From assembly GCF_022846255.1 (NCBI RefSeq), contig NZ_AP025682.1: 64,000 bases of DNA; one strand, written 5' to 3'. This DNA comes from Escherichia coli (GTDB lineage: Bacteria > Pseudomonadota > Gammaproteobacteria > Enterobacterales > Enterobacteriaceae). The translations under genes were made by a program, and so were the position numbers. How positions within the stretch are numbered: position 1 is the stretch's first letter; each line of letters starts with the position of its first letter. The notes under the pieces are model-generated. The model saw nothing but the letters and a program-made list of their open reading frames with translations. It was not told the origin of the DNA and made no database searches. Shown here piece after piece: positions 49,692 to 52,449 of the stretch.

Positions 49692-50723
49692 ATGTCTGCA
49701 TTTACCCCGGCAAGTGAAGTCTTGCTGCGTCACAGTGATGATTTCGAACAAAGCCGTATTCTTTTTGCCGGAGACTTACAGGATGACCTGCCCGCGCGTT
49801 TAGATACCGCGGCCAGCCGTGCTCATACCCAGCAATTCCACCACTGGCAGGTGTTAAGCCGCCAGATGGGGGATAACGCCCGTTTTAGTCTGGTCGCCAC
49901 GGCGGATGATGTCGCAGATTGCGATACGCTGATTTACTACTGGCCGAAGAACAAACCGGAAGCCCAGTTCCAGTTGATGAATTTACTTTCTCTGCTGCCA
50001 GTGGGCACGGATATTTTTGTCGTTGGCGAGAACCGCAGCGGCGTGCGCAGCGCCGAGCAGATGCTGTCAGATTATGCGCCGTTGAATAAAATGGACAGCG
50101 CTCGTCGCTGTGGCCTCTATTTTGGTCGTCTGGAAAAACAGCCAGTATTTGATGCCGATAAATTCTGGGGCGAATACAGCGTCGATGGCCTGACGGTCAA
50201 AACGCTGCCTGGCGTGTTTAGCCGCGACGGTCTGGATGTCGGTAGCCAGTTGCTGCTCTCGACGTTAACCCCGCACACGAAAGGTAAAGTGCTGGATGTC
50301 GGCTGTGGCGCGGGCGTACTTTCGGTTGCCTTTGCGCGCCATTCGCCGAAAATTCGTCTCACTCTGTGCGATGTCTCTGCACCTGCGGTAGAAGCCAGCC
50401 GCGCAACACTTGCGGCCAACGGTGTTGAAGGTGAAGTCTTTGCCAGTAACGTCTTTTCCGAGGTGAAAGGTCGCTTTGATATGATAATCTCCAACCCGCC
50501 GTTCCACGATGGGATGCAAACCAGCCTGGATGCCGCGCAAACGCTGATTCGCGGCGCGGTGCGTCATCTGAACAGCGGCGGCGAGTTGCGAATTGTAGCG
50601 AACGCCTTCCTGCCTTACCCGGACGTGCTGGATGAGACATTTGGTTTCCACGAAGTGATTGCGCAAACCGGGCGCTTCAAGGTGTATCGCGCCATTATGA
50701 CCCGCCAGGCGAAGAAAGGTTGA
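49692..50723 (+). CDS. rsmC: 16S rRNA (guanine1207-N2)-methyltransferase RsmC
   Basis: 343 aa with SAM-binding motif [12 protein letters not shown] and NPPFH. Confidence 0.95.
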
Positions 50724-50739
50724 GTATCTGATATATATC

Positions 50740-50780
50740 GCCGCATACCGTGTCGGATGCGGCGTACACGCCTTATCTGA
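50740..50780. repeat. REP element downstream of rsmC
   Basis: gccgcataccgtgtcggatgcggcgtacacgccttatctgacc carries the GGATGCGGCGT...ACGCCTTATC REP signature. Confidence 0.6.
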
Positions 50781-50922
50781 CCGACAAACGAATTATCCAC
50801 AATCCGCTGATGGACATTTTTCCAGCAATTACACTGCTGTCGATAATTAACTATTGACGAAAAGCTGAAAACCACTAGAATGCGCCTCCGTGGTAGCAAT
50901 TCTTTTTAAGAATTGATGGTAT

Positions 50923-51009
50923 GCGAAGGTGGCGGAATTGGTAGACGCGCTAGCTTCAGGTGTTAGTGTCCTTACGGACGTGGGGGTTCAAGTCCCCCCC
51001 CTCGCACCA
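50923..51009 (+). tRNA. leuQ: tRNA-Leu (anticodon CAG), copy 1
   Basis: 87-nt sequence GCGAAGGTGGCGGAATTGGTAGACGCGCTAGCTTCAGGTGTTAGTGTCCTTACGGACGTGGGGGTTCAAGTCCCCCCCCTCGCACCA with long variable arm and encoded CCA. Confidence 0.95.
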
Positions 51010-51037
51010 AAAACCACGTTGATATTGCTCGCACTGG

Positions 51038-51124
51038 GCGAAGGTGGCGGAATTGGTAGACGCGCTAGCTTCAGGTGTTAGTGTTCTTACGGACGTGGGG
51101 GTTCAAGTCCCCCCCCTCGCACCA
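51038..51124 (+). tRNA. leuP: tRNA-Leu (anticodon CAG), copy 2, with one substitution in the variable arm
   Basis: Identical to copies 1 and 3 except T instead of C at window position 51085 (GTGTTCTTAC versus GTGTCCTTAC). Confidence 0.95.
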
Positions 51125-51158
51125 AACGAGGCGATATCAAAAAAAGTAAGATGACTGT

Positions 51159-51245
51159 GCGAAGGTGGCGGAATTGGTAGACGCGCTAGCTTCAGGTGTT
51201 AGTGTCCTTACGGACGTGGGGGTTCAAGTCCCCCCCCTCGCACCA
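51159..51245 (+). tRNA. leuV: tRNA-Leu (anticodon CAG), copy 3
   Basis: 87 nt, identical to copy 1. Confidence 0.95.
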
Positions 51246-51283
51246 ATTATCTTTACTTCTTTTCTTGTCTCTTCACTGTTTTA

Positions 51284-51520
51284 TCACCCCTGATTCAAAT
51301 TCATTATCATCAGCATGATGCCAGCAATAAGCGCCAGGCACGATGGTAGCAAAACGTAATGCCGTAAATGTTTGTGATACAACATCACCGGCGTCAATAC
51401 CAATCCCATCAGAATGACAATCCGCCATTGATCCGGCGATAAATCCGCATACATCAGCCCTGCAATCAGCAATCCCGGCAGCAACACTCCCCAGCCACTG
51501 CCCAGCGTACGTTGCAACAT
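51284..51520 (-). CDS. yjjZ: Small membrane protein YjjZ (78 aa)
   Basis: MLQRTLGSGWGVLLPGLLIAGLMYADLSPDQWRIVILMGLVLTPVMLYHKHLRHYVLLPSCLALIAGIMLMIMNLNQG; ORF-track start trimmed to the internal Met. Confidence 0.7.
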   Translation of the reverse strand: MLQRTLGSGWGVLLPGLLIAGLMYADLSPDQWRIVILMGLVLTPVMLYHKHLRHYVLLPSCLALIAGIMLMIMNLNQG

Positions 51521-51535
51521 GGTTTCATCTCTTTC

Positions 51536-51581
51536 ATTGATAATGATAACTAATATCATATGATAATTTTTATCATTTGCA
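51536..51581. promoter_or_regulatory. Fur-box region in the divergent yjjZ/fhuF promoter
   Basis: attgataatgataactaatatcatatgataatttttatcatttgc contains overlapping GATAATGATAAC-like hexamer repeats matching the Fur consensus GATAATGATAATCATTATC. Confidence 0.6.
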
Positions 51582-51660
51582 AGCCAGAGAAATCCCTTGC
51601 TATCGGGTAAACCTATCGATAGGATTAGCAATAATTATCATTTAGATTACTATCACGATT

Positions 51661-52449
51661 ATGGCCTATCGTTCCGCACCGCTCTATGAAGATGTTATCT
51701 GGCGAACGCATCTCCAGCCGCAGGATGCTGGGCTTGCACAAGCCGTGCGGGCGACGATCGCCGAACATCGTGAACATTTGCTGGAGTTTATCCGCCTGGA
51801 TGAACCCGCCCCACTTAACGCCATGACGCTGGCGCAATGGTCATCAACTAATGCGCTAAGTTCTCTACTCGCAGTCTATTCCGATCATATCTACCGCAAC
51901 CAACCTTTGATGATCCGCGAAAACAAACCGCTGATCTCACTGTGGGCGCAATGGTATATCGGCCTGATGGTACCACCATTAATGCTGGCGCTGCTGACTC
52001 AGGAAAAAGCATTAGATGTGTCGCCGGAACATGTCCACGTTGAGTTTCACGAAACCGGACGCGCCGCCTGTTTCTGGGTCGATGTGTGTGAAGATAAAAA
52101 CGCAACACTACATTCGCCGCAGCAGCGAATGGAAACGTTAATCAGCCAGGCGCTGGTTCCGGTTGTGCAGGCACTAGAAGCAACGGGAGAGATTAACGGC
52201 AAACTTATCTGGAGCAATACCGGTTATTTGATCAACTGGTATCTGACTGAGATGAAACAGCTGCTCGGCGAGGCGACGGTTGAATCGCTGCGCTATGCCC
52301 TCTTTTTTGAGAAAACGCTTACTACCGGTGAAGATAATCCACTCTGGCGTACCGTGGTGCTACGCGACGGCCTGCTGGTGCGCCGCACTTGCTGCCAGCG
52401 TTATCGCTTACCGGATGTGCAGCAATGTGGCGATTGTACGCTGAAATGA
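51661..52449 (+). CDS. fhuF: Ferric-siderophore reductase FhuF (2Fe-2S)
   Basis: 262 aa ending with the cysteine cluster CCQRYRLPDVQQCGDC. Confidence 0.9.
   Translation: MAYRSAPLYEDVIWRTHLQPQDAGLAQAVRATIAEHREHLLEFIRLDEPAPLNAMTLAQWSSTNALSSLLAVYSDHIYRNQPLMIRENKPLISLWAQWYIGLMVPPLMLALLTQEKALDVSPEHVHVEFHETGRAACFWVDVCEDKNATLHSPQQRMETLISQALVPVVQALEATGEINGKLIWSNTGYLINWYLTEMKQLLGEATVESLRYALFFEKTLTTGEDNPLWRTVVLRDGLLVRRTCCQRYRLPDVQQCGDCTLK

Follow-up and report, generated by a model that had tools for sequence, protein, structure and literature searches.

The stretch of DNA analysed here, which is called the window below and is 64,000 nucleotides long, comes from Escherichia coli; the 651 bases round the feature under study match 5424 of 5426 complete E. 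coli genomes, with the closest match (99.5%) to strains such as 536. The genes in this part of the window are ordered as in the RefSeq annotation of K-12 and strain 536: rsmC, three tRNA-Leu(CAG), yjjZ, fhuF, bglJ and yjjQ, and the three tRNAs are located by ARAGORN at 50923-51245. yjjZ (51284..51520, minus strand) is an ORF annotated by RefSeq in K-12 and 536, and encodes a polypeptide of 78 aa assigned to DUF1435 in Pfam (E = 1.4e-36). Its hydropathy profile has three hydrophobic stretches, consistent with a small membrane protein. fhuF (51661..52449, plus strand) is supported by its ORF, RefSeq annotation and Pfam, and encodes a ferric-siderophore reductase of 262 aa that consists of the FhuF domain and the FhuF_C 2Fe-2S domain. 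An earlier reading of the window from its letters alone, the first-pass annotation, had placed Fur operator repeats between a divergent siderophore reductase gene and a small membrane protein gene, and ORFs, RefSeq and Pfam agree with it on both the arrangement and the gene identities.

The divergent spacer between the two start codons extends over 51521-51660 (140 bp, 30% GC) and is found at no less than 90% identity in 5421 of 5426 complete E. coli genomes. A few E. coli genomes have up to three copies of the yjjZ-fhuF region, and three of the copies in the genome collection are on records labelled plasmids. An Rfam scan of 50700-52000 gave no match in the spacer, and an RNA element there was rejected on this ground; elsewhere in the scanned region it returned the three tRNA-Leu and a sub-threshold naRNA4/REP-like match. 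This match (50743-50782, minus strand) lies between rsmC and the first tRNA-Leu, scores 29.8 bits against a gathering score of 59.5, and is likely to be a REP-type repeat.

Fur motifs in the yjjZ-fhuF spacer

The hexamer repeats that had been read as Fur sites are present: exact GATAAT occurs at 51539 and 51562, ATTATC at 51634, and GATAAC can be read directly off the sequence at 51545. With the 19-bp Fur consensus GATAATGATAATCATTATC, a 9-1-9 inverted repeat, the two top matches of the entire 64 kb are 51539-51557 (16/19) and 51562-51580 (15/19), both in the spacer, and the resemblance to the Fur consensus claimed for these repeats therefore holds. For quantitative scoring, a position weight matrix (PWM) was built from 19 published K-12 Fur sites with fhuF excluded, and was symmetrised (20.7 bits of information). 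The sites were obtained by converting the strongest-site centres in Table 4 of Chen et al. (2007; PMC2189734) to current K-12 coordinates and extracting the K-12 DNA. Recovery of the fhuF site and the resemblance of all 19 extracted sites to the palindromic aaTGATAATnATTATCAtt validate this conversion. The training sites themselves score 18.8-29.3 bits.

A PWM scan had been suggested along with the first-pass annotation, and its scores are high: the top four of the entire 64 kb all lie within the spacer, and the best elsewhere is 14.1 bits. Five sites form two clusters. On the yjjZ side are 51559-51577 (22.2 bits), 51542-51560 (21.9 bits) and 51536-51554 (14.3 bits), and on the fhuF side are 51624-51642 (15.0 bits) and 51630-51648 (9.3 bits). 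The two strongest sites are inside the training range. The fhuF-proximal site of 15.0 bits is under this range, yet it equals a footprinted site published at 14.6 bits. Overlapping sites start 6 bp apart in both clusters (51536/51542 and 51624/51630), in keeping with the 6-bp or 3-bp steps between such sites where E. coli Fur regions have been footprinted (PMC2189734).

Since the spacer is so poor in GC and weaker Fur-like matches occur elsewhere in the window (14.1 bits at 866-884, 13.0 bits at 51293-51311), these motifs might be chance products of AT-rich DNA with no regulatory role. As a null model, 20,000 dinucleotide-preserving shuffles of the 140-bp spacer were scored with the same matrix. 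A maximum of at least 21.9 bits was reached with a probability of 0.0008, and none of the 20,000 shuffles reproduced the observed pattern, whether taken as at least four sites of at least 14 bits or as at least two of at least 20 bits. These statistics indicate a motif signal beyond AT-richness. The spacer also has 10 NATWAT-type hexamers, the maximum among all 140-bp stretches of the window. Furthermore, about 80 species have the sites in nearly invariant form, unlike the spacer DNA on either side, and the sites are covered by DNase I footprints and fur-deletion data from the literature. A chance origin is thus given practically no credence.

The match at 866-884 (TTTAATAATTAATTTCCTT), which outscores every other match beyond the spacer, lies in AT-rich DNA that precedes a hokC-like ORF (1112-1354) near dnaJ (1458-2618), and is probably a composition effect. 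The one at 51293-51311, a 19-mer in the 3′ end of the yjjZ CDS, is the sixth best in the window and is identical in K-12. No site of 10 bits or more was present at this place in any of 77 other loci, another E. coli included, and it was therefore rejected as a probable chance match in coding DNA.

Two promoters and two Fur-bound clusters

Fur binding at this locus has been analyzed in K-12. Chen et al. (2007; Nucleic Acids Res 35:6762, PMC2189734) predicted clusters at the fhuF promoter with site strengths of 16.1, 20.8 and 22.3 bits and of 14.6 and 9.3 bits, and demonstrated binding of Fur to the K-12 allele by DNase I footprinting and gel shift. Their high-affinity footprint, fhuF1 (4603763-4603815; Table 3), corresponds to 51532-51584 of the window, and their low-affinity footprint, fhuF2 (4603680-4603733), to 51614-51667; the two are separate regions and the DNA between them is unprotected (PMC2189734). 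The start codons given in the same paper, 4603827 for yjjZ and 4603686 for fhuF, fall at 51520 and 51661, which are exactly the ORF starts, so that this coordinate conversion is validated as well. Our PWM gives 16.9, 21.7 and 22.2 bits and 14.8 and 5.8 bits for the K-12 allele, close to the published values.

Regulatory data are likewise available for both genes. ChIP-exo and fur deletion in nine E. coli strains place yjjZ and fhuF in the core Fur regulon (PMC10164565), the B2 uropathogen CFT073 has yjjZ among the members of its Fur regulon (PMC7157518), Salmonella yjjZ is iron-repressed (PMC8432900), and the Fur titration assay uses fhuF::lacZ as its standard reporter (PMC3145626, PMC1874648). 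The transcription start site (TSS) of yjjZ, at K-12 position 4,605,777 and thus at 51547 on the minus strand of the window, is undetectable in the wild type, is seen in a fur deletion mutant, and is used strongly in vitro by sigma-70 holoenzyme (PMC10301672). Accordingly, the Fur sites, both TSSs and the Fur dependence of the two genes are already published and known in detail. The footprints, the fur-deletion TSS and the membership of the core regulon also bear out the iron-repressed expression through Fur that had been proposed from the letters (PMC2189734, PMC10301672, PMC10164565).

The strong Fur cluster (51536..51577) comprises three 19-bp sites over 42 bp and corresponds to the published footprint fhuF1. 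It overlaps the yjjZ sigma-70 promoter (51547..51582, minus strand), which consists of a -35 element TTGCAA (51582-51577), a 16-bp spacer, a -10 element TATGAT (51560-51555) and the TSS at 51547. The weaker cluster (51624..51648) comprises two 19-bp sites offset by 6 bp and corresponds to the published footprint fhuF2. It overlaps the fhuF sigma-70 promoter (51597..51631, plus strand), whose -35 element TTGCTA (51597-51602) and -10 element TAGGAT (51620-51625) are separated by 17 bp. The fhuF TSSs, mapped in K-12 at 4603717/16 (PMC2189734, Fig. 5 legend), fall at 51630/51631. The fhuF-proximal region was only weakly protected in vitro at 50 nM Fur (PMC2189734). A comparison with mapped promoters had also been suggested at first pass, and the TSSs of both fhuF and yjjZ are found inside Fur sites.

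With the K-12 TSSs converted, the strong cluster covers -30 to +12 of the yjjZ promoter, and the weak cluster covers -7 to +19 of the fhuF promoter. Relative to the fhuF TSS, the strong cluster lies at about -94 to -53, beyond the fhuF -35 element. A repressor does not normally act from such a place upstream of a -35 element, and the simplest reading of this unusual position is hence one operator per promoter. Judging from its position and from the comparative data described below, the strong cluster would belong to the yjjZ promoter, as an operator of yjjZ, although Chen et al. call both clusters fhuF promoter sites.

We therefore consider it highly probable that two sigma-70 promoters stand back to back in the spacer and that each has an operator of its own for iron-loaded Fur. 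The strong operator would lie across the yjjZ promoter, from the -35/-10 spacer through the -10 element and the TSS to +12; since it overlies the core promoter, Fur dimers bound to it would exclude RNA polymerase from there. The weaker operator would cover the end of the -10 element of fhuF, the TSS and the first 19 transcribed bases, and would block fhuF initiation. When iron is scarce, Fur without Fe2+ would come off the DNA, and yjjZ and fhuF would be transcribed divergently. The first-pass annotation had treated 51536-51660 as one control region. Its Fur repeats stand, but a single shared array does not: there are two operators of unequal strength, one per promoter. That interval starts at the first base of the leftmost site and ends at the last base before the fhuF ATG, and it consequently lumps together the two clusters (51536-51577 and 51624-48) and the roughly 45 bp of promoter DNA without Fur sites that separates them.

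The fhuF core promoter is also spanned by a candidate OxyR site (51602..51638), found by a scan with the consensus ATAGnTnnnAnCTAT-n7-ATAGnTnnnAnCTAT; it agrees with this consensus at 14 of 20 specified positions, a joint-best match that is weak alone, as two unrelated sites in the 64 kb tie with it. An OxyR footprint and fhuF primer extension were reportedly obtained by Zheng et al. in 2001. OxyR is reported to repress fhuF (reviewed in PMC8115020), and the candidate site is consistent with this repression. As for the 30-nt fhuF leader, no recognisable Shine-Dalgarno sequence precedes the ATG (…TTTAGATTACTATCACGATTATG; 51640-51660), and the matching stretch in other genera varies in length and likewise lacks one.

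The window carries the same locus and the same sites as K-12 fhuF1/fhuF2 (PMC2189734), with three plus two overlapping sites of nearly equal predicted strengths, but not the identical allele. The spacers are identical at 133 of 140 positions and differ by seven SNPs (51522, 51551, 51589, 51619, 51622, 51633 and 51655), among which T/C (window/K-12) at 51551 is in the strong cluster, A/C at 51633 is in the weak cluster, and G/T at 51622 is in the fhuF -10 element. The three strongest sites score 21.9, 22.2 and 15.0 bits in the window vs. 21.7, 22.2 and 14.8 bits in K-12. The two weakest sites score 14.3 vs. 16.9 and 9.3 vs. 5.8 bits, shifts of 2.6 and 3.5 bits in opposite directions. The SNPs are thus predicted to cause no material change in Fur affinity. 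The fhuF -10 element is TAGGAT in the window, the common form across genera, and TATGAT, nearer to consensus, in K-12, where the TSS was mapped. For a 55-bp fhuF-promoter segment, 325 of the 5426 complete E. coli genomes carry exactly the allele of the window and 414 exactly that of K-12, and most other matched genomes are one or two bases off the K-12 allele; a 55-bp yjjZ-operator segment of the window recurs unchanged in 676 genomes. We infer that the footprints and TSS mapping in K-12 apply to the allele of this strain.

Comparative genomics and loss of a cyclase gene

FhuF was searched for in one genome per species, which yielded 80 loci from Escherichia, Citrobacter, Salmonella, Enterobacter, Lelliottia, Leclercia, Kluyvera, Raoultella, Kosakonia and others. 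According to tblastn, yjjZ adjoins fhuF (140-166 bp) only in Escherichia (four loci and the window) and in Leclercia/Silvania (six loci), and in 65 of 80 other Enterobacteriaceae species the gap between yjjZ and fhuF is about 1.4 kb. This longer gap holds a gene that is oriented like fhuF and encodes a GGDEF protein of 354 aa (Pfam GGDEF, E = 4e-47); the gene is nearly complete in 64 of the 65 loci. The GGEEF motif of the protein has its third residue at position 267, and the Salmonella diguanylate cyclase STM4551 has GGE267EF (PMC3229569). The gene is identified as the orthologue of STM4551. In the locus of Salmonella enterica subsp. arizonae (L034), the cyclase gene occupies 816-1880; it is at the equivalent position in 64 other loci and absent from the window, where its place corresponds to 51583-51587. 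Intestinirhabdus alba (L051) has a gap of 553 bp that holds only a 38-residue C-terminal remnant of the cyclase.

Both Fur clusters are conserved irrespective of this gene, and each keeps a fixed distance to the start codon of its own gene. The yjjZ cluster is present in 77 of 77 loci in which yjjZ was found, with centres at about -48, -31 and -25 from the yjjZ ATG and a median of 21.7 bits for the best site. All 81 loci examined for it have the fhuF-proximal site, which scores a median of 17.3 bits and lies -26 to -37 from the fhuF ATG, and almost no further Fur site is found upstream of fhuF across the loci. Alignments of 80 species contain near-invariant blocks over the yjjZ-side sites and promoter hexamers (GATAATGATAAC.AATATCATATGA), and the yjjZ promoter is kept across genera as CTGACA-17-TATGAT. 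On the fhuF side, the near-invariant blocks are CTTGC, TAGGAT and GCAAT.ATTATCATTTAGATT (81 loci), and the block GCAATnATTATCATTTAGATT at the fhuF-proximal Fur site is nearly invariant. The DNA flanking the conserved blocks is not alignable between genera.

In the window, the yjjZ-side homology ends at about 51583 and the fhuF-side homology starts at about 51587, which places an approximate deletion junction at 51583..51587. As the end of one homology meets the start of the other, the Escherichia spacer is read as the scar of a deletion of about 1.28 kb. It is thus well supported by these alignments that Escherichia lost an STM4551-like cyclase gene through this deletion, which brought both operators side by side. 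The junction in Leclercia/Silvania differs, implying an independent loss of the cyclase gene there. This comparison supports the notion that the operators are modular and became neighbours only in some lineages, and their juxtaposition by the deletion explains why the strong fhuF1 site stands upstream of the fhuF -35 element. We infer from comparative genomics that in E. coli each operator may serve mainly its own promoter.

In the yjjZ-cyclase spacer, Salmonella and Enterobacter have in common a plus-strand ATGACA-17-TAAATT with a TG-extended -10 element (L034:670-698 and L081:690-718). It is likely to be the promoter of the cyclase gene, which the Escherichia deletion would have removed.

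A second plus-strand promoter has to be considered on the yjjZ side of the spacer. TTGATA-16-TATGAT at 51537-51564 shares the palindromic -10 element ATCATATGAT with the yjjZ promoter, and the strong cluster might also control this promoter, from which a longer fhuF transcript would start at about 51571. The match scores 10/12 in the promoter scan, above both mapped promoters, and its counterpart TCGATA-16-TATGAT (9/12) is seen in Salmonella and Enterobacter. Against it, fhuF starts are reported only at 51630/31 (PMC2189734), and such matches are to be expected because Fur boxes resemble -35/-10 hexamers in composition. In the long arrangement, ATGACA-17-TAAATT is nearer to the cyclase gene and the likelier cyclase promoter; with this better-placed candidate conserved downstream in both genera, TTGATA-16-TATGAT was also downgraded as a former cyclase promoter. 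The match probably arises only from the likeness of Fur boxes to promoter hexamers, and control of a second fhuF promoter by the strong cluster seems very unlikely.

Independence of the operators and comparison with other Fur-regulated loci

In place of one operator per promoter, the two clusters might constitute one shared cooperative operator, in which Fur bound at the strong yjjZ-side cluster reaches the weak one by spreading or looping, so that repression of fhuF in Escherichia needs both. Several observations are in line with this. First, no more than about 46 bp (51577 to 51624) separate the clusters. Second, Fur footprints extend at higher concentration, which was described as 'secondary footprinting' (PMC2189734), and Chen et al. 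took both clusters as sites of the fhuF promoter. Third, the fhuF-proximal site of E. coli is weak, 14.8-15.0 bits vs. the median of 17.3 across species, and a strong cluster 46-98 bp upstream of the fhuF TSS could add to the repression of fhuF.

However, 65 of 80 species have the proximal site alone at fhuF and the strong cluster about 1.4 kb off, which means that the proximal site is able to stand alone. In Citrobacter species with the long arrangement, the proximal sites are just as weak (14.8 bits), so that the weakness did not follow the juxtaposition. Centre spacings of the clusters are 65 and 82 bp in Escherichia vs. 95 bp in Leclercia/Silvania, and this difference between lineages speaks for no conserved helical phasing; a helical-phase or looping constraint between the clusters is unsupported, with the spacing unequal in the two short-arrangement lineages. 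The published footprints also form two regions with unprotected DNA between them. The comparative data thus do not call for a shared cooperative operator, which is regarded as unlikely in E. coli, and the reading with one operator per promoter is preferred.

A coupling restricted to Escherichia can also be envisaged, in which the deletion made the high-affinity yjjZ operator a loading site for Fur that tightens the repression of fhuF or shifts its iron threshold. This is a tentative and rather doubtful proposal. The divergent region is, in any case, a lineage-specific fusion of two operators, and as such it offers a natural test of the mutual influence between neighbouring Fur operators.

The fhuF promoter is among the best-known Fur targets, and its recognition here carries little weight as a discovery. 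What is added is that the strong cluster is explicitly assigned to the yjjZ promoter and that the divergent region is traced to the loss of an STM4551-like cyclase gene. There is also some value for calibration, in that the right coordinates and the right regulator were picked from the sequence alone.

In its layout, the locus resembles fepA-fes, fepD-entS and fepB-entC, where short AT-rich divergent spacers separate iron-regulated genes. At fepA-fes and fepD-entS, a single Fur-protected stretch is common to, or closely interleaved between, the two divergent promoters; unlike these, the operators of yjjZ and fhuF are parted by unprotected DNA and lie 1.4 kb apart in most relatives. Overlapping 19-bp sites with 6-bp offsets, positioned over core promoters, are a further feature in common with the three fep regions (PMC2189734, Tables 3-4). 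The repeated GATAAT-like hexamers also recall the aerobactin iucA operator, in which they let several Fur dimers bind side by side. Compared with the iucA region, where 13 sites are predicted over about 100 bp (PMC2189734, Table 3), the clusters between yjjZ and fhuF are far shorter and discrete.
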